NCBI GenBank assembly: GCA_963844715.1
Contig: CAWJPJ010000006.1
Location: forward strand, 832,001-896,000
Source of the DNA: an uncultured Phycisphaerales bacterium
GTDB taxonomy: Bacteria > Planctomycetota > Phycisphaerae > Tepidisphaerales > Tepidisphaeraceae
DNA length: 64,000 nucleotides
Reading direction: 5' to 3'
This document shows, piece after piece, positions 2,692-21,326 of the stretch. A model generated the notes under the pieces. That model searched no databases, was not told the origin of the DNA, and saw only the letters and a list, made by a program, of their open reading frames with translations. Within the stretch, counting starts at the first letter, position 1; each line of letters opens with the position of its first letter. A program made the position numbers and the translations under genes.

Positions 2692-3024
2692 TTATGCGAC
2701 CGACCTCGCTGATGTTTCGTTGTTATTCGCGATCGTCATCACGACTTTCTTTTCCGGAACCAGCACCACGCTGTTCCAACCGTTTTCACAGGCTTCGATG
2801 CCATGCGACGCGAAATCCGTGAACCAGTAACCGTCGGCGATATATCGAAAACGATAATCCCCGGGTGGCAGGGGGAGAGAGGCTGTCCACCATCCTCCTC
2901 CGGCCGGTTGCATGGCAACCGCGTGTCGAACCCATTGGGAAAAGTCCCCGGCCAGTTTCACGTCGCCTACATGGGGTCGATAAAACCTGAATTCCACTGT
3001 TCCGTCATCCCTGATGCTGGTCAT
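2692..3024 (-). CDS. Glycogen-binding / isoamylase early-set (CBM48/AMPK1-CBM-like) domain protein
   Basis: VEFRFYRP..V.LAGDFSQW...M...GGWW...L.LPPGDYRFRYIADG.W. Confidence 0.85.
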   Translation of the reverse strand: MTSIRDDGTVEFRFYRPHVGDVKLAGDFSQWVRHAVAMQPAGGGWWTASLPLPPGDYRFRYIADGYWFTDFASHGIEACENGWNSVVLVPEKKVVMTIANNNETSARSVA

Positions 3025-3242
3025 CTTTCATTCCTTCGTGGGGATGGTAGAACAAACAGCGTGCCACGCGGACTCGTTTCGGTAATTTGGGGGGTGTTGG
3101 AACCGTCGTGGACCGGGCAAAATGGCCGTTTTCGGGGCCGAAATGGGCTGGAATCTTGGATGTGAATTTTCCGATGATATGGCCACGAATGCAGTTACGA
3201 CGCGGTGATCCAACGCCTGAAGACCGGCGAAAGTTTCGGCAA

Positions 3243-6145
3243 ATGGCATCAGCGTGCCCATCGACTATGCACCTTTGGGGGGTCCGAAGCCTCCTTACTA
3301 CCCTCCTATTCTTAACTTGCTGCCAACATTTGCGGTTAAATCCAGCCGAGAAAAACGGCATGGAAAAGGGCGGCATCGCATCCGGGGCGGCGCTTACCGC
3401 CGTGGATTTCAGCAACCCGGCGGCGCCGGCGGCGATGGATCTGCCGCTTCAAATTCCTGCCGCCAAAAACGAATGGACAAATTTTGTCGTGCAGCTGCGC
3501 AACGTTCCATCGCCACTAGCGGGCTCGACATGGACATTGCACATTCAATCGCCGCCCGAAATTGGGGCGGGCAATTTTCGCGCCTATCAAATCTTGCCGG
3601 TGCCGGTCGAGACCAATCGCGCCGGATACGTTCGGCAGACAGGATTGCCCGTCGGCGCGGCAGAGCTTCCGCGCGCTCCTGCCGTTATCTATTCAAGACG
3701 GCGCGATCGCGATGTCATCACTGCGAACGACATCGCATATTTTTATCTGGGTCGATGTCCACATTCCGCCGGAAATTTCCGCCGGGGATTATTCCCTGTC
3801 GTGCTCATTACAGACGGACGAAAAGTCGGGGGCCATTTCGCAAATTCCAATTTCTTTGCATGTGTACGATTTTGCGATTCCAGACGAGCGCCATCTCACC
3901 ATGGTGAGCCGCATCGACTGGAGTTCGCTTCAGCGGCTTTACGAGGATCGATTTGAAGCCATCACGCCCAGGCTGATGAATCGGGGCGATCCGGTTTACG
4001 CGGCCCCTCTGGAAACGCTCGACCAACTGGTCAATTTGAGCGAGGATAATCGGGTCGAGGCGGTCATTCCGCGCCTTCAGCCGACGGTGAAATGGCCCGC
4101 CGGCGAGCCCCCTCAGGCGGATTGGTCCGATTTCGATACGGTGGTCGCCCCCTGGATGAGCGGGGAAGCCTTCGCCGATCGCCAGCCCCTGGCGTATTGG
4201 CCCCTGCCGGCGATCGATTACCTCAATAACTTCGACGATCGAAATCGCCAGGCATACTGGAGCGAGGCAGCGAGCCATTTCAATGCGAACGACTGGCTGA
4301 ACCGCTCGTCGGCGTTTCTTGTCAGCCCCCCCGGCGCATCGGGCGGACGAGGCCCAGGCGGCGAAATTGTCTGCCGAAGCGCAGCTCATTCTGGAAGCGC
4401 ATCCCTTGCTGCGAGTAACCGTGCCCCTGGAGGACGATCAACTCCATTTCGCCGATGAGCAAAATCCTTCGATGATCGATCCCCACAGCGCCGATCGCGT
4501 CATGGCCGCGGCGAAGGGAATTGTATTTGCCGCGCCCAAACTATCGTGGTCCGCCGATGTTTCCCCGCCGGATCATTGGCTGCGCACGGATCTCCCGGGC
4601 CTGGTGCCATATATCGGCGCCGGCGGGGACGAGCGCGACGTGCGGCTGTGGGCGTGGATGGCTTTCCTTAAACGCGCGGGATTGATTCCGTGGAACGATC
4701 CCCTGCCGCAGAGCAACGCGCTCTCCGAACCCGGCGATCCCTCGGAGATGGTCTGGTTCTATCCCGGCAAATGGTTCGGCGTGGATGAGCCGGTGCCGAC
4801 GCTGCAACTCAAATGGCTGCGCCGCGCCGAGCAGGACTATGAATATCTCTATCTCGCCCAGCAGCGCGGCATGTCAACCAATGCGTTTATGCTGGCCCGG
4901 CTGATCATCAAGCCTGTCGAGATTCAGTCGGATCAGTCGCCCGATCCGGAATATTCGCTTTTAACCGGGACGGTGGATCAAGCCACCTGGGACAACGCCC
5001 TGTCGCTCTTGGCGCGGACCATTCTGCTGCGCGCCACCGGCGCGGACCCGACGAGTCCCGAAAATCGCGCCAAACTCGTCGCGTTGAATCTGGACACCAT
5101 CCGCTGGCAGGAGCCAAAGGAACGGCCCTATATATTGCCGCGTGTGGCGCAGTGGCTATGGGAAATGCCGCCCGACCCGCAGGGGAATCAGAAAGTCTTC
5201 GTCCGCCTGGGCGTGGATATTTACAACGCCGGGGACAACCGCCCCACCGACAATCTATTGCAGTGGGATTCCGCCAGCGCCGGTTGGGAATTCCAACCCC
5301 AACCGTTCGTCATCGGCCCGCTTCAGACGTATTGGGTGCAGCGTTTTTCGCTCGAGGCACGCGTGGATTTGCAGAATGTCTCGGCGGAATCGCGCCGGCC
5401 TTTGGAAATCTCCTTCATCGACGGATACACGCACGACGAATACCGCGCCCAGGCAATGCTGCCCATCGCGGTCAGCGACCGGCGCGAAGGAAGACTCTCG
5501 ATCGACGGGAATCTGGACGATTGGGACCAATCCTACGAAATTCATACCGGACGGCTCACTAAAATGCTCGACCGCCCCACCGTTCAGCATTGGCGGATTC
5601 AGCCGGCGGAAACGAGTTCCACACTCTTTAGCGGCTGGGGGGAGGACAATTTCTATTTTGCATTTCATGTTCGAGGGACTGGGGCCGGCCAGCCGCTGCA
5701 TCGGAATTTCATCGAGCAGCAATTCCGGCGCGGATGGGGTGAAGACCTTTGCGAGATGCTGATCCAGCCGATCTATGATGACAACACGATGGGACCGCTG
5801 ACTTACCTCGCCTGTAAGCCCAATGGCGTGTGCGTGGTTAGCCACTCGATCGCGGGGGCGACAAGGCCTTCGGATTCCAGCGCCCAAACGGATACGACCG
5901 TGCGATATGCCGCCAATCCGCAGTCGGGTGCCTGGGATGGGGAGCTGGCGATACCGTGGTCGGTGCTGCTCGACGGCAACCGCCCCCTGCCCCGTCTGCT
6001 GCGGTTCAATTTCATCCAGCATCGGGCCGCCAATGGCGAATCGGACAGTTGGGCCGGCCCCATCGATTACGACCGGGACGACCAGCTCATGGGGCTCCTT
6101 TATTTAAGGGACACCAGCCCCCCCGGCATGTCACAAATGCCATAA
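3243..6145 (+). CDS. Large exported protein, probably GH123/DUF4091-like with C-terminal CBM9-like domain; two frameshifts (about 3680 and 4330)
   Basis: Three overlapping ORFs join into one protein: signal/lipobox-like N-terminus, AAKNEW..F, PTLQLKWLRRAEQDYEYL (DUF4091-like), IDGNLDDW...WDGELAIPW (CBM9-like). Confidence 0.6.
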
Positions 6146-6379: not shown

Positions 6380-7219
6380 ATGTTCCTTTCTCTGGTTCGC
6401 CGCCCTTGGCGCGGTGTGGCGGCGCTGATGTTCTCTGGCGTGTTCGCCGCCGCCGCCCAGGCGACGCCCGTGGTCCTCACGGATGGAAACTCGTCGGTCG
6501 ATTTCGACCCGGCAACCAAAACCGGCCAGTCGAGCTGGGTCGTTGACGGCGCCAACGAATTGACCGAGGGTTGGCTCTGGGGCACCACCAGCACGGGCGC
6601 CCTCTCCACCATAAGTAACCAGTTTTCCAGCGGCGGGGTTCTCTCCGCCACCTATCAAGGCGATGGATTTAACACCGTCCTTAATTTCACGCTCGTCGGT
6701 GGCAGCACCGGCAGCAAAACCTCCTCTATTATCGAAACCCTGACCTTCAACAACACGAGCGACGCGCCGATTCAGGCCAAAATTTTCGATTACGAGAATT
6801 TCGCCCTCGATGGCGCGGCCGGCAACGACACGCTGACGTTGAGCGGGTCCCCCGTGAATACCGCCGATCAGACTGATCCCCTCGGCACGGACGCCAATGT
6901 CGTCGCCACCGGCGGCGGCGCGGCGCCGGACTTCTATCAGATCGGAACCAACGGGTCCGTCCTGGCTCTCTTGGCCAGCACGAATGACACCGTCACGCTC
7001 AATGACAACAGCACCGGTCCTCTGGTTGGCGATGACAGCTTCGCCTTTGAATGGGAGCCGACCATCGATGCGGGCGGGAGCTTCCAGATCAGTGTCAATC
7101 AAACCATTACGGGAGGCGCGATGGTGCCGCTGCCCAACGCTGCTCTCAGCGGGGCGGGACTCCTCGGCCTCCTCACAGGCATCGCGCTGATGCGCAAAGC
7201 GTTTCGGGCCTGGGCCTGA
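6380..7219 (+). CDS. Exported protein with PEP-CTERM-like (VPLP) C-terminal sorting signal
   Basis: Signal peptide, Thr/Ser/Gly-rich body, VPLPNAALSGAGLLGLLTGIALMRK. Confidence 0.85.
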   Translation: MFLSLVRRPWRGVAALMFSGVFAAAAQATPVVLTDGNSSVDFDPATKTGQSSWVVDGANELTEGWLWGTTSTGALSTISNQFSSGGVLSATYQGDGFNTVLNFTLVGGSTGSKTSSIIETLTFNNTSDAPIQAKIFDYENFALDGAAGNDTLTLSGSPVNTADQTDPLGTDANVVATGGGAAPDFYQIGTNGSVLALLASTNDTVTLNDNSTGPLVGDDSFAFEWEPTIDAGGSFQISVNQTITGGAMVPLPNAALSGAGLLGLLTGIALMRKAFRAWA

Positions 7220-7260
7220 TTCGCGCCACGGGATCGAAGATATTCACATCGTCCCCCAAG

Positions 7261-7297
7261 CCAGCCGCGGCACTCTTCGCCGCGGCTGGAGTGTTTC
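7261..7297 (+). terminator. Probable intrinsic terminator hairpin
   Basis: CCAGCCGCGGC-actcttc-GCCGCGGCTGG downstream of the stop at 7219. Confidence 0.55.
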
Positions 7298-7789
7298 TAT
7301 CTCCTGATTAAACGACGCCATTGCGCGAAAATCTGGCGACGTTTCGCGCCGGTCGATTGTCGCAAACCATACCGCCAATGTCGTTTTCGACGAAAAATCG
7401 CTGCCTCTCCATTGTGAAGCGCATACGCGAAATCACCGGGGAAACGCGGTTTCGCGTGCATGAGCGCCCGGTTCAGGCCGCATAAATGTCCAATAAATGA
7501 TGCTCAAAATGATGCGCTTTTCTGTTGACTGATTCCGCGCGTCCGTGTTATAGGACCCGCGACGGCCTAGTGGAGGTATTTGGTATCGGTGTAGCGGATT
7601 AACATTTCGATTCATCTCCCCTCCCCTCAGGCGGTCTCTGTTCTGTTTTGCAGGGTTGTTAGTTGTTCAAAAAGTAGATCGGCAAGAGGCCAGTGATCCA
7701 CCGGCCAAGCCATGAAGAGAGTCCGCGCGGACGCGGCGGCTTTGGACGGGGATCACGCATTTACCTTACTTAAGGTGGAAGGTGGAGAG

Positions 7790-9516
7790 ATGTACGTACA
7801 TCCTGGGGTTAAACGGTCAATATCGGGGAAGCGCTATCTGGCATGGGCTCTGGGGCTTGGCGTGGCCGGGCTGCTGGGGGTGCCCAAAGCGGCATTTGCG
7901 CAGACACAAGTCAATGCGGGATTCTCGTTCTACCAGGAAGATGAATTCGAGGCGGGGACTTCCGAGACCCAATCCAGTCCGGATTACACCAGTACGGCAA
8001 TGATCAGCGTTAACCCGAATATCGGCGGCGGCAGCGACGGATATGTCAACGTCGTCGATGGGAACGGCAATTGGGTCGTTCAGAACATGCCGGTCATTCC
8101 CCAGCAGAGTTCGGCTACGACCAGCGCCCCGGTGGATCTGGGGACGCCGGACGATTCGCAAGACGCTTCTGAATCCGCCGCCGTCTATTTCTCCACCAAT
8201 CCGGTAGCCAGCGCGCCCTCGGGTGGAACCGATCAGTCTTATTCTTTGGCGACCGATGACATCGACCCGCAAGGGGCCGGGACCGATCCCAACGAGGCGA
8301 CCGATGAAACGGAATATAATCCGACCATCGGGCCGGGCGGGGCGCCGGGTGTGAACTCCTTTTCGCCCAATTGGGCCGGAATTTTCTCCGGCACGACTCT
8401 GGTCTGGGTTAAGAACTTCAACACCTATAACGTGCAGGCGGCGCTGAATCAGTGCGGTCCCTCGGCGGAAGCCAACGGAATCAATTATCTGGCGACGAAC
8501 AATGCGACCTTCGCCGCCGCGCTGGGCGTCAATTTCAACAACAATCCTGGGCAGGGAATCTTCTCCTCGATGGCCAAAACCGGCACAACCTATACGCCCA
8601 CCGGTGCCTATCCCTACGCCGGCAACGCCTCAACCTATTACGTATCGACGGCCAACGCCAACTCCGCCGCCAGCATTCAGACGTTGACCAATTCCGGCAG
8701 TGCCGCGACGTCGAGCCTGGTTGCCCTGATGGACGTCGCCACCGCCCGCCAGGCTGGGACCGTAGCCGGGCCAGGGCCGATTTACTCCGAGACCCAGAAC
8801 CGCACGGCCGGCAGCGGCGTGTATCCCCTTCAGGGTTTGATTAATTTCATGAACGGCTACGCCGCGCCGAATCTGAAAGTCAGCGTCGGTTATGAGAGCG
8901 TCGCGCATTTGAAAACCCGACCGTGCCGGTGAACGCAAACATGACCGTCGCTGCCCAGAATGCCGGCACCATCAATGTGAACTCCAGTCCCGAATGGATG
9001 TTCCAGCAGTTGATCAACGGCGCGATGGTGACCCTCTCGTACGCGTCCTATACGTACAACGCCAGGGTGACATGGAATAACACCAGCGGCAATATTATCG
9101 GGACCCCGACTTTTGGCGCGACCACACAAACCGTCTCGCACGAAGTCATGTTGTCGGCCATGACCAAAACCGGCCTGGGCGCCAACGCCCAATATCAGGT
9201 GCTGCTCACCTCCGACCTGAACCAGGCCAACGACTTGAGCCTGGGAAATAATCCCAGTTTCTGGTCGACGATCGGAAGCAAGACTGGAAGCATAAACGCC
9301 TACCTGAACGGGCCCGGCATGTCCGGAACGGCGCTCCTTCCCGGAGCTATTAATAATGGCAACGGGACCAGCACCGGAACCTATCAGATCGATTACAGCT
9401 ACATCACCGCCATTGAAGTGGCTTCCGTGCCGGAACCGGCCTCGGCCTCCATGCTGCTCATTGGAGCCGCGGGACTGCTCGGCCGGCGGCGTCGATCGCG
9501 ACACCTTGCTGTTTAA
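7790..9516 (+). CDS. PEP-CTERM surface protein, possible papain-fold cysteine peptidase; frameshift near 8920
   Basis: Signal peptide; NVQAALNQCGPSAEANGINYL; second ORF ends VPEPASASMLLIGAAGLLGRRRRSRH. Confidence 0.8.
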
Positions 9517-9638: not shown

Positions 9639-12044
9639 ATGCCTCGGGATATTCCAGTCGGCAACGGATCGCTGCTGGTCGCATTCGATAATCGCTATCA
9701 AATCCGCGACGTTTTCTTTCCGCATGTCGGGCAGGAAAATCACGCCGGCGCCGGGCCGTGCCGGTTTGGGGTATACGCGGATATCCCGGCCGCGGGAAAG
9801 AGCCGCCTGGCCTGGACAAGCGACCCCGCCTGGCAGATTCGCCAGCGATACCTCCGCGATTGCCTGACCACCAGTGTCAGTCTGGATCACGCCCAACTGC
9901 GGCTCTCCCTCTACTGCAACGACGCGGTCGATTTCCATCGAAATATTCTGGTGCGGAAGATCAAAATCAAGAATCTCACCGAGGCCGCGCGCACCGTTCA
10001 GATCATCCATCATCAGGACTTCAACATGTTCGGGACGAAAGTGGGCGACACCGCCTATTTCGATCCGGAACTGAAATCGATCGTCCACTACCGCGGCAAG
10101 CGATACCTGATGGCCACGTTTTTCTCCGGCGCAGAGCAGCGGATCGATGAATACGCAACGGGAACCAGCGGCTTTCAAGGCGCCGAGGGAACCTGGCGCG
10201 ACGCGGAAGACGGGCACCTCCAGGGGAACGCCATCGCGCAAGGCGCCGTCGACAGCACGATCAGCCTGCACGTGCCGGTGCGGGGCGGCGGGGAATCGAG
10301 CGTTTACTTCGCGATGATCGCGGCCGAGTCGCGCGAGGAATTACTCGAGCAGCATCGCTGGCTCCTTCGCCAGACCCCGCAAACGGTGCTGGATCGCACC
10401 ACCAGCTACTGGCGGCTTTGGGTCGGCGGCACCCACATCAACTTCGGCAATTTGCCCGCCAAGGTCGTCGAACTCTTCAAACGCTCGCTGCTGGTCATGC
10501 GCACGCAGATCGACAACGGCGGCGCCATCGTCGCCGCAAACGACAGCGATCTGCTGCAATACGCGCGCGACACCTATTCGTACATGTGGCCGCGCGACGG
10601 CGCCCTGGTCGCCGATTCATTGGACATGGCGGGACTGCCGGACGTCGCCAAATGGTTTTACAGTTTTTGCCGCGATGTGATCACACCCGAGGGATATTTC
10701 CGCCACAAATACAATCCGGACGGCTCCCCCGCTTCGAGTTGGCATCCCTGGGTGATGCGCGGGCAGAGCGCCATGCCGATCCAGGAGGACGAAACGGCCC
10801 TGGTCGTCTGGGCGCTCTGGCGGCATTACTACCGCTACCGGGACATCGAATATATCCGCCCCCTCTGGGTGGACCTGGTGCAAAAGGCCGCCGATTTCAT
10901 GGTGCGATATCGCGATCAGCGGACCGGCCTGCCGCTCCCCAGTTACGATCTATGGGAAGAGCGCTGGGGCGTGCACGCCTTTACGATCGCGACCGTTTAC
11001 GGCGCCCTCAAAGCCGCGCGCAACTTCGCCGTTTGCTTTGGAGAGCGCGCCAAGGCCGAGACCTACAACCAGGCTGCCGAAGAGATCAAAACATCCGCCG
11101 CGAAATATCTGTGGAGCGAAAAGCACAAGCGCTTCGTCCGCCGCCTCATTCCGCGCGACAACAACACCAACGGCGACGACATCTACGAAGTCGATGAAGT
11201 CGTCGACGCCTCCCTTTACGCAATTTACAAGTTTCATCTGTTCGACGCCCACGACCCGCGCGTCGAGCAAACCATGCGTCAGGTCGAAAGCCGCCTGTGG
11301 ATCAAAACCCGCGTCGGCGGCGTCTGCCGATACGAACACGACAACTATCACCGCGTCAGCACCGATCTCGCCGGCGTGCCCGGAAACCCCTGGTTCATCT
11401 GCACCCTATGGCTCGCCGATTATTTCATCACCCGAGCGCAATCCGCGGCGGATCTGAAGATGGCGCTCCCGATTTTCGAATGGACCGCCAGCCACGCGCT
11501 CGAATCCGGCGTCCTAGCCGAGCAAGTCAACCCCTACACAAACGAGCCCATCAGCGTCTCCCCCCTAACCTGGTCCCACGCCGCCGTCGTCGGCACCGTG
11601 ATAACTTATTTGGAAAAGCTCGAAGAATTACAGACCTGCTCCGAATGCAATCAGCCGATGTTTCATGTTCGCCATGACGGCCCCACTTCCATGAAGAGCC
11701 AGGCGAATTTCGATCGCCTCGAGGTTTGGCCGCAATCCCCCAACGAGCGCGAAATGACCAGCGCCGTCGGCCGATTCACTTCCACCGACCCCCACACCGG
11801 CCGCCAGCAGGCGGTCACGCTCGGAATCGACATCCGCGACTGCATCGGCTGCGAAGTCTGCGTGGCTCACTGCAAGCAAAACGTCCTGCGAATGGTCGAC
11901 GGCAAGGCTCTGGTCGATCTGCAAAATCTCAATCAGTGCGATCTCGATGCCGAGTGCGTCGAGGTCTGCCCGACCGATGTCGTCATGCTGCGTGTAGTTC
12001 CAATCGAGCCGGCTCTTCGCGACGCGAAAGCGCCCGTCGCGTGA
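9639..12044 (+). CDS. Glycoside hydrolase family 15 (glucoamylase-like) with C-terminal 4Fe-4S dicluster ferredoxin domain
   Basis: YSYMWPRDG, QEDET, YDLWEER, LAEQV..SVSPLTWSHA (GH15); tail has CIGCEVCVAHC and CDLDAECVEVCP. Confidence 0.9.
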   Translation: MPRDIPVGNGSLLVAFDNRYQIRDVFFPHVGQENHAGAGPCRFGVYADIPAAGKSRLAWTSDPAWQIRQRYLRDCLTTSVSLDHAQLRLSLYCNDAVDFHRNILVRKIKIKNLTEAARTVQIIHHQDFNMFGTKVGDTAYFDPELKSIVHYRGKRYLMATFFSGAEQRIDEYATGTSGFQGAEGTWRDAEDGHLQGNAIAQGAVDSTISLHVPVRGGGESSVYFAMIAAESREELLEQHRWLLRQTPQTVLDRTTSYWRLWVGGTHINFGNLPAKVVELFKRSLLVMRTQIDNGGAIVAANDSDLLQYARDTYSYMWPRDGALVADSLDMAGLPDVAKWFYSFCRDVITPEGYFRHKYNPDGSPASSWHPWVMRGQSAMPIQEDETALVVWALWRHYYRYRDIEYIRPLWVDLVQKAADFMVRYRDQRTGLPLPSYDLWEERWGVHAFTIATVYGALKAARNFAVCFGERAKAETYNQAAEEIKTSAAKYLWSEKHKRFVRRLIPRDNNTNGDDIYEVDEVVDASLYAIYKFHLFDAHDPRVEQTMRQVESRLWIKTRVGGVCRYEHDNYHRVSTDLAGVPGNPWFICTLWLADYFITRAQSAADLKMALPIFEWTASHALESGVLAEQVNPYTNEPISVSPLTWSHAAVVGTVITYLEKLEELQTCSECNQPMFHVRHDGPTSMKSQANFDRLEVWPQSPNEREMTSAVGRFTSTDPHTGRQQAVTLGIDIRDCIGCEVCVAHCKQNVLRMVDGKALVDLQNLNQCDLDAECVEVCPTDVVMLRVVPIEPALRDAKAPVA

Positions 12045-13733
12045 AATAAACCAGCAGCCCGACAAACGCCAGACAGAGCAAAACCTCATTCGTCCACGCC
12101 GATGGAAACGCGTCGCCAATGAAGTGATACCCGAGGATGTGCTTGGCGACGATGTTCTGCTCCGCGAATTGGCTGGGGAGATGATCGCCAAGCACGATGC
12201 CGGGGAGACGCTGGCCCATGACGGGCCGAACGGCGTATTCAGCGTGTTCATTGTGCAACTGAAATAGAATCCCCAGCACAAAATCGATTCCGCACCCGCA
12301 CACGCCCAGGATCTGCCACGGAACCGACAGTCGCGGCAAAAGCGACGCGAAGCGCATATTCCAAAATAAATCAGCGGCAGCCCCCACAGCGGCAGCGACC
12401 CCCAAGCCTTCAGTTCCGGAGTGGATGCGATTCCCAGCAACGTCGTAACAACAAACATCATGAGCCAGAACCGCCCCACCACTGGCGCGAGATTGAGCCG
12501 CCGCAGATGCACCACCAGGATCAGCCCGCCGAAAATTCCCCACGCAAACGGGATGGTCGTCTGATCGAGGCAGAAAATCAGGTCGCGAATTAGCGCCGGC
12601 GGGTCGCTCTGCGCGAATTGCCCATAGGGAACACTGCGGAAGAAATACGGCACAAACACATTGACCGCGTTCCCCCCCATCACCGCAATGCGAGTCCACG
12701 ACTGATCTTCGATCGCCCACGCCGTCGTGTTCGTGCGCACAGTATGGCTCACGCCGTAAGTGTGAATCGCCCAAACAAACCACGTCGCCAGCAGCGCCGC
12801 GCACACCCCCGCGATCGTCAATATCTCCCCGAACTTGTTTCGACGCTTCGGCCAGACGGCGACCAAATAATGCAGCCCCAGCGCCGCCGCCCAGGCGCAT
12901 GCGTAATAATGCGAGAGACACGCCATCGCCACGAAAAAAAATCCGGCGGTTAATCGACCGCGATCGTTTTTCATCCACCCGCGCAAATAAAACCAGACCG
13001 CCAGCAAACAAGGCATCGCCGTGAATGATTTTGTCCACGCAAATTCCACGTTTTCCATCACCGCGGCGTTGGTGGCGAGCAAGAAAAGTATCGCGGCGGT
13101 CGCGGCGCGGCGGCCGAGTTTTCTATTCGCGCCGCTGGTTACGAAAAGAAAACAAACCAGCGCGGGAAGTAAATTCAAAAACAGCGCGATGAACTGATAA
13201 GTTTTAAAATCGTTGCCGTACAGCGCCATGAAATGCGCGCAAACCAGGTTCATCAGCGGCGGCCGCGCCGTCAGGAGATACATGCCGAGAATTCTGTAAT
13301 TCAAATCCCAGTGCTCAAGAAAGAAAAGCGGGCGTTTGTAATGTTCGATCCAATCAAAATAGATATCCCCGCCGCCAAAATTGCGAATATCCGCGGCTTG
13401 CAAAAGCGCCCAGCACCAAAGAACCCCAAACGCGCCCAAAACCCGGCGAATATGCCGCCGCGCAATCAATCGCCGCAAATCTTTCCACGATGCGATCGTC
13501 ATCGCGCCGCAAATCGCGGCCAGGATTCGATGCGAATTAATCGTTGGCAGATTCGCCGCGTAAATGAACATCGACCCAGCGTAAATAAACACCAGCGACG
13601 CGGCGACCGAAGCGCAAAGAGTTTCCAGCGGCTTCCAGCGGAAATGGCGCACGAAAAATAATCCCGGCCCGATCGAAGCCACGGCGAGCCACAACAAGAG
13701 GAGCGGAAAATAAACCGGGATGGATAATAACAT
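11983..13733 (-). CDS. Polytopic membrane protein, GT-C/PMT-like glycosyltransferase; frameshift near 12355
   Basis: Many hydrophobic helices, periplasmic DWIEHY...ARPPLMNL loop; C-terminal helices continue in the 11983..13038 frame. Confidence 0.6.
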
Positions 13734-15856: not shown

Positions 15857-17377
15857 TTATGGTTGGCGAGCTAAAGCCGACTGAATTTCCTGCAATATTG
15901 TAATCACCTCGGCCGCCGATACCTGAAACTCGTTCCTCGCCACCTCTTCATTAACTCGAATAAACTCCTCAACTTTCGCCAAGAGCACTCTTTTCGCCTC
16001 TCGCTTCTCTCGTTTGTCCAATAGACTAAGGGCCGACGTCGCATCGGCCTCAAAACGCTGCGGGTAATATTTTTCGAAATCGTGCTGAGCTAGCTGACGA
16101 AACTGCCCCCGGTTCCAACCATGGTATTTCTCAACCAATTTACGCAGAATTTCGCTCTCGGTCTCGCCCCCATCCACTATCACCCAAGCCTTATTTCTGT
16201 ACACGGGCTCCAAGTTCAGAAAACAGATCAGATCATTGAAGGTGTCGAATCTCGGCTCCACCTTTGAGAGCGAACCGGCGGAAAAAGTCCGCACGCGACC
16301 ACTCAAGTCCGGTAAGAACCAAGGAATTAAGTACTCCCGAATGATCTTCTCGGCCGACGACTCCTCCAAAAACAGCCAGGCGCTCCACAGATAGTCATCA
16401 GCAAGCTCGTACCCGAGCTCGTCAAGCACCTCGTGGCGCGCCTCCGTCGTGCGCTCCACTTCTCGCACCTCAGCCGTTGGAATCGAAGAAGGCGGCGACA
16501 ACTGGCAGACGCGGAAGACTTTTGCGTCGGCGATCCCGCCAAGCCTCCTCAATACCACGTTCGAATGCGTCGTAATCAGAAATTGATTTGTTTTAGCCTT
16601 ATCAACGATAACATCGAGCAAGCCCTTCAGCGCCCTGGGATGCAAATCGTTTTCGGGCTCTTCGATAATAAAGAGCTTATCATCGGCCAGGCTTAAATCG
16701 GCCAAAATGGCGACCAAACTCATAACGCCCTCCCCCATTTGTGAGAGTGGTATCCGCGAAAAATTATCGATCATGTAGACCGCCTGTTTTCCGCCCGGAC
16801 TTCCACTCGTGGTGATCCTTAGCCCAAGAATCCGCTCGCATGCGTCCATAAAATATTTGCACGCCGGAATGCCGGGATTGCACAGCTTGTCGACCTTTGC
16901 AACCAAGAACTGAAAGTTTGGCATTACGCTATCGGTGGTGTCGGCATTTATTGTCTCGACCAGGTCGGTGACTTTGCGCTTGGCCCCAAAAAGATAGATG
17001 AAGTTATCTGGCGACTTACCAGGGAATGGAGTTAGGGGACTCTCTTGCCTATGCGGACCGGTGGCGGTTGTGGTAAAAGTAGTCATGCTTGGCCCACCTC
17101 TCCCAACGATCTTCCTGATTTTGCCTAGGTTCGCCGGCAAAAAAGGCGGGGGCTTGGCCCACCCGAGCTCAATCGTAACGGTCAATCTCTGATCACCCTC
17201 CCTAATGTCGGCGGGTAGAAGCTGAGGGAAGCGATCCTGAAGCGACAGCAGCGGCCGAAGAAGCGTCGACTTGCCCGCATTGTTCGGGCCAACGATCACG
17301 TTGACGCCCTTCGAAAGCTGCAGTTCGAATGTGGGGAAACACCGAAGGCCTTCGCCGCTTATATTCTTGACCCACAT
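15857..17377 (-). CDS. OLD-family-like ATP-dependent nuclease (ABC/AAA ATPase + Toprim-like domain)
   Basis: Walker A GPNNAGKS, LSQMGEG signature, Walker B IIEEPENDLHP, ITTHS, then FLEESSAE...VIVDGG...HDFEKYY Toprim-like acidic motifs. Confidence 0.8.
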   Translation of the reverse strand: MWVKNISGEGLRCFPTFELQLSKGVNVIVGPNNAGKSTLLRPLLSLQDRFPQLLPADIREGDQRLTVTIELGWAKPPPFLPANLGKIRKIVGRGGPSMTTFTTTATGPHRQESPLTPFPGKSPDNFIYLFGAKRKVTDLVETINADTTDSVMPNFQFLVAKVDKLCNPGIPACKYFMDACERILGLRITTSGSPGGKQAVYMIDNFSRIPLSQMGEGVMSLVAILADLSLADDKLFIIEEPENDLHPRALKGLLDVIVDKAKTNQFLITTHSNVVLRRLGGIADAKVFRVCQLSPPSSIPTAEVREVERTTEARHEVLDELGYELADDYLWSAWLFLEESSAEKIIREYLIPWFLPDLSGRVRTFSAGSLSKVEPRFDTFNDLICFLNLEPVYRNKAWVIVDGGETESEILRKLVEKYHGWNRGQFRQLAQHDFEKYYPQRFEADATSALSLLDKREKREAKRVLLAKVEEFIRVNEEVARNEFQVSAAEVITILQEIQSALARQP

Positions 17378-18277
17378 CCTTAAATCCCTTTTTTTGAACG
17401 GCCTCCTCGGCAAACAGAGGCTACCGCCGCCGCCGGGGTGTGGCAAATCGTGCGGCGCTTTCACCGGGACGCTATTACTTGCGGAAAAAAAAACGCGAAA
17501 CTTGTAAAACTCCCCGCCGATCACCGAGTGCCACGGACGGCGCATCCCCGGTGCCTACTTGATTCCGGTCAGGCCAGTTCGGACCAGCGTTCCCTTTGAC
17601 CGACGGTTGAGTCGACCTATCCTCCGTTTCCTATCGTTGCCCGGGCTCGCCGACTCCCCGCCACCGAAACTGAATATTCAAAAACGAATTTCCAAATACC
17701 GCTTTTGGAAATACGCCAGGTCCATTCCGAATTAATTCCAATTTCCATTTTTTAGCCCAAAGACCGCCGTTTTGAACAAGCCGCAGGACCCCCGTGGCGA
17801 CATTCATCGTTCATCGTTTCCCCCCGACCCGCAACTGGCAACTGGCAACTAATATGCATTTTTTAATATATCTCCCCCCCCCGCAACCCCCAGCCGCCCC
17901 GCCACTTGCGCGCACCCAAAAAATTAAATCTTCTTGCTACGAACGTATGCATTTTTTGATATACCACTGCCTACTGCCTTTTTAAGCTGCCAAACGCGGT
18001 CTTCTTCCCCTAGCAACAAACAACCAGCCGAAGGGCCGCCGTGGTGGCCAACCAGTAACGTGTCTATTAAACATTAAACAGACACCGCAACTCAAGTCCC
18101 CCCAATAACTTCCCCCAAAAAAGTCCCCAATTTCAGTTCGAATCGAAAAAATGTTGCGCAGCTTACCCCCATTTTTTTCCAAAATGATTTATTTTCCCTG
18201 CCCTGAGCCAAGTCGAAGGGGCCCTCTACTGCCCCACTTTTCCAGATCGCCGCGGCCGCAATGCGCGGGGAAATTCA

Positions 18278-19270: not shown

Positions 19271-21326
19271 ATGGCTTACCTGTCGCGCATTTTCTGTCTA
19301 TCCGATCAAGGCGCTGGAGGGGGTGTCGGTTGATGCGGCCAGGGTTTTGGAGACGGGGGCGCTGGCGGATGATCGACGGTTTGCCATCTTTGATGCTTCG
19401 GGGGGATTCGTTAATGGGAAACGAAATCATCGGGTGCATCTGCTGCGGTCTGCGTTTGATCCGGCTAGCGCGGAATTGAGAGTTTGGAGCGCGGAATCGG
19501 CTTCGCGAAATGCGGACCCCCTCCCTTACCCTCCCCCTGAGTACATGGGGAGGGAACAAGAAGACGGCGCGTCGATAAAAGAAGAGGTCCCTCACGCCAA
19601 CCCGCGGACTGCCCCTCACCCTAGCCCTCTCCCCGAGTACAGGGAGAGGGGAAAAGAGCACGGGGAACGGAGGCAAGAGGACAGGGAGAGGGGACCGGAG
19701 GGGAAGACCTTCAATGTGTTCTCTGAGCGGGCGGGGTTGGAGGAATGGCTTTCGGGATTTTTTGGGGAGCGGGTTTGGTTTCGGGAGAATTCGGATGTGG
19801 GGTTTCCGGATGATTTGGAGTCGCCGGGGCCTACGCTTGTGAGTACGGCTACGCTCCGCGCGGTGGCGGAATGGTTTGGGCTTTCTCTCGAACAGACTCG
19901 GGCGCGGTTTCGGACTAATTTGGAGGTGGATGGGGTGCCGCCGTTTTGGGAGGACCGGTTGTATGGGGTGCGCGGGGTTGTGGTGCGATTTAGTTTGGGG
20001 GAGATCGTTCTCGATGGGATTAATCCTTGTCAGAGGTGTGTGGTGCCGGCGCGCGATCCGGGGACGGGGGTTGGTTTGGCGGAGTTTGCGAAACGGTTCG
20101 TGGAGTTGAGGCGGAAGTATTTGCCGGACTGGGCGGAGGAGTCGCGGTTCAATCATTTTTATCGGCTGGCGATCAATACGCGGCTCGTGGATCGCGGAAG
20201 TGGGATGTGCGTTCAGGCCGGGGACGAGGTGAAGGTGATTGGGCCGCGGGGGACGGCGGCGGTGCCGGCGCCGGCGCCAAAAACGGGGAAGTGGTCGGGG
20301 AAGTTGCTTGTGCGGGAGGTTTTGCAGACTACGGCGTCGGTGCGGACGTTTCGATTGGGGGCGGTGGATGGGGGGAATTTGCCGTTCACGCATTTGCCGG
20401 GACAGTTTTTGAATATTGAGGTGCCGATCGGGGGGGTGAAGCATCGGCGGTGTTATACGATCGCGTCGCCGCCGACGCGGGTGGAGTATTGCGATTTGAC
20501 GGTGAAGCGGGAGGAGGAAGGGACGGTTTCGCGGTACCTGCACGATGCGGTGCGCGCGGGAATGGAGATCGAGGCGTCGGGGCCGGGGGGGAAGTTTGTG
20601 TTTACGGGGGAAGAGGCGGATGCGGTGATGCTGGTTGGGGGCGGGGTGGGGATTACGCCGCTGATGTCGGTGATTCGGTATCTGACGGATCGGAAGTGGC
20701 CGGGGAGGATTGAGCTGGTTTATTGTGCCAAGAGCGTCGAGGAGATTATTTTTCGCGATGAGTTGGAGAAGTTGGCGGCGGCGCATGGGAATTTGCGGGT
20801 GACGATGACTTTGACTCGGGAATTGAATGGGCGTTGGGCTGGGGAGCGCGGGCGCATCAGCGCGGAGATGTTGAGAAGGTGCTTGCCGGAGGCGAAGCGG
20901 AGGAGATTGCATGTTTGCGGGCCGGTGGAAATGGCGGGAGAGGTGACGCGGATGCTGCGCGAGGTGGGAGCAGGCGCGGAGGAGATTTATTCGGAGGCGT
21001 TCGGGGGGAAATTTGCGAACGGCAATGGGAACGGGAACGGGCATGCGAAGAATGGCGGGCCCATTGTGGGGTCGGTGACGTTTGCGGAATCGGGGAAATC
21101 GGTGGGTTTGCATGCGGGGCAGTGCGTGCTCGATGGAGCGAAGACGGCGGGGATTGGGATCGACCGCGGTTGCCTGGCGGGGATTTGCGGGAGGTGCAAG
21201 GTGCGCGTGCTCTCGGGAGAGGTGACGATGGAGGTGGACGAGGGGCTGGGGGAAGAGGATCGCCGCAACGGGTTTGTGCTGGCTTGTCAGGCGAAGGTAT
21301 CGGGCAGCTTGGTGGTGGAAGCTTGA
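19271..21326 (+). CDS. MOSC-domain protein fused to FNR-type FAD/NAD-binding and 2Fe-2S ferredoxin domains (YcbX-like N-hydroxy reductase); frameshift near 19295; repeat-derived in-frame insert
   Basis: YPIK, DRRFAI, RFRTNL, CQRCVVP (MOSC); RCYTIAS, GGGVGITP, CGP, EAF (FNR); CLAGICGRC...LACQ (2Fe-2S). Confidence 0.9.
19517..19651 (+). repeat. Two GTAC-cored palindromic elements inside the MOSC coding sequence
   Basis: CCCCTCCCTTACCCTCCCCCTGAGTACATGGGGAGGG and CCCCTCACCCTAGCCCTCTCCCCGAGTACAGGGAGAGGGG. Confidence 0.85.

Follow-up and report, generated by a model that had tools for sequence, protein, structure and literature searches.

A GH15 glycosidase joined to a ferredoxin domain in Phycisphaerae: an intact enzyme with a predicted, lineage-variable iron-sulfur module

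Hydrolysis by glycoside hydrolases of family GH15 requires no cofactor. In Sulfolobus acidocaldarius the GH15 enzyme is catabolic for glycogen (PMC11046441). A precedent for an iron-sulfur (Fe-S) domain in a non-redox enzyme is the Rpo3 subunit of archaeal RNA polymerase, whose ferredoxin-like domain is non-essential and is needed for efficient assembly; two clusters are described only in strict anaerobes, with one or none elsewhere (PMC5300874). Among ferredoxins themselves, Asp48 of the seven-iron (7Fe) Sulfolobus protein stands at the corner of a [3Fe-4S] cluster as a non-ligand, an Asp of Pyrococcus ferredoxin ligates a labile [4Fe-4S] cluster (PMC2946596), and Desulfovibrio africanus ferredoxin III (FdIII) has a reactive [3Fe-4S] site (PMC13111528). 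Here, we describe a gene at positions 9639 to 12044 of a 64,000-nucleotide stretch of DNA (the window) from an uncultured Phycisphaerales bacterium of the family Tepidisphaeraceae (contig CAWJPJ010000006.1 of assembly GCA_963844715.1, positions 832,001 to 896,000), which joins a GH15 enzyme to a ferredoxin domain. With moderate confidence, we read its product as an intact intracellular GH15 enzyme of glucoamylase type carrying an Fe-S module that would tune it.

The gene is an uninterrupted frame of 801 amino acids on the forward strand in which GH15 is followed by a CxxC motif, a linker and the ferredoxin domain. Its features are given below in window coordinates; pseudo-enzymes are homologs that have lost catalytic residues.

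9639..12044, + strand: GH15-CxxC-ferredoxin fusion gene, 801 amino acids, ATG at 9639 preceded by GGAAGG
9639..10373, + strand: N-terminal beta-sandwich domain, residues 1 to about 245 (AlphaFold strands; Foldseek match to 1lf6_A, E 7e-28, TMq 0.63)
10491..11591, + strand: GH15 (alpha/alpha)6 catalytic barrel, residues 285-651 (PF00723, 103.8 bits; TIGR01577, 329 bits, below cut-off)
10587..10598, + strand: W317-P-R319-D320 motif, invariant in 108/108 full-length homologs and lost in 12/12 pseudo-enzymes
10947..10961, + strand: DLWEE, including E440, aligned to WEE of 1lf6
11520..11522, + strand: E628 in LAEQ, aligned to SEQ of 1lf6
11637..11648, + strand: C667-x-x-C670 knuckle directly after the last barrel helix, in 121/121 sequences and also in unfused GH15s of many phyla
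11679..11744, + strand: residues 681-702, a flexible linker (pLDDT < 50) and the least conserved stretch
11766..12002, + strand: beta-hairpin and bacterial-type ferredoxin domain, residues 710-788 (Pfam and structure comparison)
11841..11873, + strand: motif 1, C735-C738-C741 and C745 (cysteine pattern in homologs)
11937..11972, + strand: motif 2, C767-D770-C773 and C777-P (cysteine pattern in homologs), with D770 at 11946-11948

A sequence-only reading of the window had proposed that a GH15 enzyme of cytoplasmic type runs in frame into a ferredoxin, and the open frame, the homologs and contigs from other sequencing runs all bear this out. The motifs on which that reading relied, CSEC (C667-C670, 11637-11648), CIGCEVCVAHC (C735-C745, 11841-11873) and CDLDAECVEVCP (C767-P778, 11937-11972), lie where it had placed them. 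The MPRDIP start is common to homologs, and no signal-peptide-like start is visible at the N-terminus. Overlapping contigs from two other runs (soil, two studies) cover the junction at 11531-11880 without an indel, and hence the region around 11600-11820 whose continuity had called for a check; they do so in pieces, none spanning the whole gene, and one substitution, at 11616, occurs in a depth-2 contig. Frameshifts are present elsewhere in the source assembly and none in this gene. A search with residues 640-801 returned 201 proteins from 423 candidates, and all 120 of those listed contain PF00723; C667, C670, C735, C738, C741, C745, C767, C773 and C777 are kept in these and the query (121/121). 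This recurrence of the architecture, together with the coverage of the junction by other runs, refutes an assembly artefact.

A ferredoxin in a reading frame of its own was considered: 33 short matches lie mostly on short contigs. Of nine short tail proteins inspected (eight of the 33, and P0148), most start within the barrel, the linker or the ferredoxin and look like gene fragments. The N-termini of P0349 and P0148 are unrelated, and these two may derive from frameshifts or belong to other contexts. The internal stops flagged in two genomes (G493 and G510) proved to lie where in-frame fusions naturally end. The fusion gene had no match in the plasmid collection, no RNA holder is listed for it, and a promoter scan gave 1 site against 0.8 expected.

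The PF00723 match to the enzyme part stands against a gathering cut-off of 22 bits. The AlphaFold model (pLDDT 82, pTM 0.79, 90 sequences) finds its best Foldseek matches in 1lf6, 1ug9 and 9ju0 (E 7e-28 to 2e-24), and resembles bacterial glucoamylase 1lf6, glucodextranase and dextran dextrinase. With TIGR01577 proteins and 1lf6 it shares the beta-sandwich, the (alpha/alpha)6 barrel and the WxRD, WEE and EQ motifs; it differs from 1lf6 in sequence (19% identity), the match stopping at residue 657, and from the solved GH15 structures in that none matched the ferredoxin tail. We take WPRD (W317-D320) to be the substrate-binding motif of glucoamylases, E440 to be the general acid and E628 the general base. 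W317, R319, D320, E440 and E441 are invariant in full-length homologs (108/108), E628 is kept in 41/41 sequences of the source family, and only one of the fused groups fails to keep the catalytic residues invariant. The best NCBIfam match is the oligosaccharide amylase TIGR01577 (329.2 bits; curated cut-off 820.7 not reached), against which relatives score 310-334 bits. Trehalose, one of the substrates first suggested, is disfavoured: the GH15 trehalases TreH1 and TreH2 (NF041084 and NF041085) give 66.9 and 63.2 bits, below their cut-offs of 820 and 1000 and, at best, far under the amylase score. The nearest family and the glycogen cluster of other lineages lead us to predict that the enzyme releases glucose from glycogen-derived alpha-glucans in the cell. 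Elsewhere the source genome encodes GT4, GH57, two debranching enzymes and a glycogen-synthase-like gene; its second GH15, a TIGR01535 glucan 1,4-alpha-glucosidase, adjoins a sugar transporter.

The tail matches PF00037 (Fer4) at 23.5 bits, over a cut-off of 21.1, and PF12838 at 26.6 bits, just short of the cut-off of 27. VIA-align places the tail model on 8jjr_c (Z 8.1, rmsd 1.3 A, 62 residues) and on the 7Fe ferredoxin 2vkr_A (Z 7.1, rmsd 1.4 A, 62 residues); Foldseek with this model gave no match at E 0.001, and the ESM Atlas no usable match to residues 640-790. By the known ferredoxin pattern, C735/738/741 and C777 form a predicted [4Fe-4S] site (site A), and C767/C773 with C745 a predicted [3Fe-4S] site with D770 at its open corner (site B). 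With seven Cys, and D770 in the eighth place, the tail has the 7Fe pattern of one full motif and one lacking its middle Cys; the eight Cys of a dicluster ferredoxin are found instead in some of its relatives. Seven Cys and a mid-motif Asp are shared with the 7Fe ferredoxins (the Sulfolobus/Acidianus zinc ferredoxin, 2vkr and 1xer; D. africanus FdIII), and the fold with 2vkr. The Asp of the Sulfolobus ferredoxin, however, sits in the first motif and that of the fusion tail in the second, and, unlike 7Fe ferredoxins, the fusion tail tolerates N, K, E, G or R in place of the Asp, has no Pro after C745 and is part of a larger protein.

Among 174 distinct homolog tails, residue 770 is D in 155, N in 13, K in 3, and E, G and R in 1 each. 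The proposal that this Asp switches the site between 3Fe and 4Fe states fares poorly in view of the 19 of 174 tails with another residue, and of the corresponding site, where two other groups have only Cys and which anammox bacteria lack. Because Asp770 is not invariant, a fixed [3Fe-4S] site appears likelier than an Asp switch, and because K, G or R can replace it, the non-ligand case known from Sulfolobus is favoured. The tail itself is under selection, since the proportion of nonsynonymous differences (pN) across 24 genes is 0.14 in the ferredoxin and 0.11 in the barrel, as against 0.34 in the linker (its synonymous counterpart, pS, is near saturation, and only the pN ranking is used).

Named homologs belong mostly to Tepidisphaeraceae. 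The gene is present in 100 of 140 other genomes of this family, a tally that takes in one unpublished genome (G462) on which alone no claim depends; 86 of the 100 reach the ferredoxin, four are partial and uninformative and ten end before it. All ten tail-less genomes were inspected and have an intact catalytic end and a Cys-free tail, so that catalysis appears not to need the ferredoxin. The two other genomes of the source's own genus (95% and 90% complete) gave no match to the gene.

Five forms of the tail were distinguished. In the source family (form 1) site A is complete and site B has an open corner (7 Cys). Family f106 of the same class (form 2) has the full tail in 22/22 genomes, with 8 Cys in 14/14 distinct sequences. 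Form 3, from family f111 (4 of 7 genomes) and further proteins, has CxxC and 8 Cys in 12/12 and keeps E440, W317, R319 and D320 in 0/12; eight of these sequences are gapped at 320 and five have E at 628 in an altered context, a column that is uncertain. These pseudo-enzymes make up one long-branched clade with about 45% mutual identity and open frames, and in each of four f111 genomes (73-97% complete) such a protein is the sole PF00723 match. Pseudo-enzymes were recorded at L194:6416-8629, L195:1576-3861 and L197:5714-8074, and as P0133, P0139, P0153, P0233, P0272, P0274 and P0277-P0279. Form 4 is that of the anammox family f39, placed by the tree with records titled Brocadiaceae; the full tail is present in 39/47 genomes, with site A complete and site B gone in 12/12 (one cluster). 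Many anammox genomes have unfused GH15 paralogs of about 670-725 amino acids besides the fused copy, and one (G880) has two fused copies. Form 5 was first met in a record titled delta proteobacterium (L112:7127-7486, error-rich; 1/17 genomes of its class), and its tail occurs in 15/16 metagenome loci (L226-L240), ten of them in frame with a GH15 end. Here site A is opened to CxxAxxC, in a motif CxxAxxCxxxCP, or to CxxVxxC in two cases, and site B is a full Cx4CxxCxxxCP. In the tree its barrel falls among Nitrospirota rows; the catalytic residues are kept in the three that were aligned. An invariant site A, considered as a rule, was dropped on account of the CxxAxxC of form 5. Every fused form retains at least one complete four-Cys site.

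Unfused GH15 relatives without the ferredoxin occur in many phyla. A single clade of all fused GH15 domains was rejected (p-AU 1e-74; 25 rows, quick LG+G4 tree, pseudo-enzymes excluded), and the linkers of the fused forms resemble each other; the history may be one old fusion followed by many losses, or repeated shuffling. A FastTree tree served to place f39, the pseudo-enzymes and L105. Records titled Anaerolineales (L105 by tree, L110 by tail) group with the eight-Cys Phycisphaerae and are not counted as spread beyond the phylum, and the distribution outside Planctomycetota is a lower bound.

The CxxC that precedes the linker has a wider distribution. Unfused GH15s also carry it after their last helix, in records titled Nitrospirota, Acidobacteriota, Chloroflexota, Myxococcota, Chlamydiales and archaea (38 distinct sequences), and by this comparison it is a subfamily-wide feature, older than the ferredoxin or independent of it. 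Loci L116-L163, from many phyla, represent a widespread unfused GH15 subfamily that ends in a lone CxxC(G) knuckle. Comparison of 119 CxxC-bearing with 14 CxxC-less sequences gave no intramolecular partner, in that no Cys or His column is lost with the CxxC. Three distinct family proteins have the ferredoxin without CxxC; of the CxxC-less proteins, P0310 has CPSC at residues 519-522, in a variable barrel loop, and L083 and L104 have a single Cys there. A zinc-bridged dimer of paired CxxC motifs would presumably resemble the Rad50 hook, and a homodimer prediction (residues 262-690, two copies, Zn) scored 0.00, which gives no verdict either way. The sequence-only reading missed the subfamily-wide occurrence of the CxxC, the five tail forms and the catalytically dead clade that keeps its tail.

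The cluster sites were compared with the presence of coxA, called by a TIGR02891 match at E 1e-50. It was found in 28/30 chosen genomes of the seven-Cys family, tail-less ones included, in 0/16 and 1/4 genomes of f106 and f111, where the all-Cys forms occur, and in 0/7 of f39. The source genome has a fragmented coxA and cytochrome bd.

Gene neighbourhoods differ between the lineages. In the source family, the genes that recur around the fusion at 24 loci are purB, at 12 of them, and a glycogen-synthase-like gene, at 6. The f106 loci have amylo-alpha-1,6-glucosidase in 14/14, GH57 in 8/14 and GT4 in 7/14. At f111 loci GT4, GH57 and a MazG-like gene are present in 3/4, and in the fourth genome another contig likewise has GH57 upstream. 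Pseudo-enzyme genes directly follow GH57 in 4/4 genomes; the cluster is of the kind GT4-GH57-GH15-MazG-like. The GH133/GT4/GH57/GH15 gene set of the Sulfolobus glycogen pathway (PMC11046441) has its like in lineages of the fusion other than the source's. At two anammox loci a Tll0287 hybrid kinase follows the fusion gene, and in one of them two receiver proteins come next; a preprint (bioRxiv 10.64898/2026.02.01.703092) describes Tll0287 as a c-heme Cache domain. Among the neighbours of the fusion gene, no oxidoreductase recurs.

To judge from its motifs, the ferredoxin domain would bind one [4Fe-4S] and one [3Fe-4S] cluster, and the module would tune the activity, assembly or stability of the GH15 enzyme by iron, oxygen or redox state. 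It would be an accessory lying outside the chemistry of hydrolysis, because that chemistry needs no cofactor and tail-less orthologs keep their active-site residues, and it is not debris, because it is conserved and survives the loss of catalysis. The Cys-to-Asp change would fix an oxygen-tolerant [3Fe-4S] site in a mostly oxidase-bearing family and not make a switch. A redox, iron or oxygen role is the likeliest reading of the tail. We infer that this role is regulatory by analogy with archaeal Rpo3, which likewise has a 2[4Fe-4S]-type domain in a non-redox enzyme, non-essential and with zero, one or two clusters by lineage (PMC5300874); the tail model aligns with Rpo3 2pa8_D at Z 6.4 and rmsd 3.7 A over 65 residues. 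The two differ in host enzyme and in layout, the fusion's domain being C-terminal, behind a linker and after the CxxC. The likeness is a working analogy and not membership, the fusion being known from sequence and models.

Several observations weigh against tuning of this enzyme by its tail. The dead enzymes that carry the tail show that, in their clade at least, it does something else than gate its own active site. The linker is predicted to be disordered. Loci of the source family lie mostly outside the glycogen cluster, with GT4 and GH57 in 0/24 and purB commonest (12/24), and the substrate is not fixed, a TIGR01577 score of 329 being far below 820.7. The oxygen pattern comes from three or four lineages, which do not count as independent events. 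Anammox bacteria, without coxA (0/7), have nevertheless lost site B and misfit a simple rule that an anaerobe has eight Cys, and form 5 opens site A instead. More tentatively, we suggest an undescribed Fe-S control of bacterial glycogen, in which the ferredoxin would read iron, oxygen or the low-potential electron pool and gate the release of stored carbon, its cluster set re-tuned in each lineage (8Fe, two 7Fe kinds, 4Fe), with a pseudo-enzyme carrying ferredoxin and CxxC to the GH57/GT4 machinery in one Phycisphaerae family.

The tail could instead be an electron carrier or sensor that the GH15 body tethers to a glycogen complex, acting on partners (GH57, GT4, an oxidoreductase, a kinase) and not on its own active site. 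We think this rather unlikely, although it suits the dead proteins, which at about 45% mutual identity retain CxxC, 8 Cys and intact frames in 12/12 and, as the sole PF00723 match, stand directly after GH57 in 4/4 genomes, and it suits the anammox gene that precedes the Tll0287 hybrid kinase. The lack of a recurring neighbour oxidoreductase gene counts against such a carrier, as does the restriction of the dead clade to one family (4/7 genomes) plus further proteins, and site patterns that vary so widely by lineage would fit a fixed electron route poorly. Somewhat less probable still is a purely structural role, in which the clusters and CxxC stabilise the fold or an oligomer and transmit no signal. 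Lineages have repeatedly tolerated losing one cluster, the CxxC or the tail altogether, and Fe-S clusters with a structural role are known in non-redox proteins (PMC5300874), but in many phyla unfused relatives manage with no such domain, a flexible linker precedes the ferredoxin, and within Phycisphaerae the site pattern tracks respiratory lifestyle.

That Asp770 ligates a labile fourth iron, so that [3Fe-4S]/[4Fe-4S] interconversion is itself the switch, seems to us improbable. Lysine, glycine and arginine are unlikely ligands of iron, and N, K, E, G or R stands at this position in 19/174 tails; the site is also absent in anammox bacteria. The Asp is nonetheless common (155/174 family tails) and arises separately in P0276, and Asp ligation in Pyrococcus (PMC2946596) and the reactive site of D. 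africanus FdIII (PMC13111528) offer models for it, whereas the equivalent Asp of the aerobic Sulfolobus ferredoxin is a non-ligand (PMC2946596). We give scarcely any credence to participation of the clusters in catalysis, by redox-assisted glycoside cleavage, or to an artefactual fusion: the canonical acid and base are intact and tail-less orthologs exist, and the frameshifts elsewhere in the source assembly, which might have favoured an artefact, are outweighed by the fusion in 120/120 listed homologs and by the junction's coverage in other runs.

The sequence-only reading knew of no described GH15-ferredoxin architecture, and we found none in print in full-text searches judged by titles and the starts of abstracts, with subscription journals and supplements outside their scope; nor was any glycoside hydrolase with a ferredoxin domain found in the literature searched. 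The word 'ferredoxin' is absent from the first 300,000 of the 445,374 characters of a 2024 review of prokaryotic alpha-glucan enzymes. Database auto-names do show the architecture, several homologs bearing the JGI name 'GH15 family glucan-1,4-alpha-glucosidase/ferredoxin'. Each part is of a known kind; the novelty lies in their combination, in the series of cluster sets and in the clade of pseudo-enzymes. Should the tail regulate its enzyme, Fe-S state would be linked directly to the mobilisation of glycogen, both in anammox bacteria and in the Phycisphaerae of soil and sediment. Natural controls exist as versions with eight Cys, with seven Cys of two kinds, with one cluster, without the CxxC, without the tail and without catalytic residues, so that the question lends itself to a simple glucose-release assay.

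Two upstream genes had been offered as glycan context. The CBM48 gene at 2692-3024 (- strand), about 6.6 kb upstream, is indeed present but is not conserved near the fusion gene, its homologs lying 0.2-2.7 Mb off or on another contig in 5/5 well-assembled relatives. The label of a glycan-active protein for 3087-6145 is unconfirmed: it has no Pfam match at E 0.1, and homologs of its 4319-6145 portion lie 0.24-2.3 Mb from the fusion gene in the 4/5 relatives having one. This long gene (+ strand) extends over several frames, likely through assembly indels, and its homologs, at 39-47% identity in 4/5 relatives, have frames of up to about 1,100 amino acids.

Directly upstream of the fusion gene are two secreted-looking genes (6380-9516, + strand); the frame at 8923-9516, which closes with a PEP-CTERM motif, seems to be the continuation of 7712-8932 beyond a frameshift. 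On the opposite strand, the open reading frame at 11628-13733 overlaps the tail only through a frameshift, and its true frame likely ends at 11983; this frameshifted membrane-protein gene (11983-13733, - strand) has two paralogs on contig C7 and at its end covers the final 60 bases of the GH15 gene. Further downstream, 15857-17545 (- strand) encodes an AbiEii/OLD-like AAA_21/AAA_15 ATPase that may have a defence role, and 19323-21326 (+ strand) is one frame of 667 amino acids with MOSC, FAD/NAD-binding reductase and 2Fe-2S ferredoxin domains.

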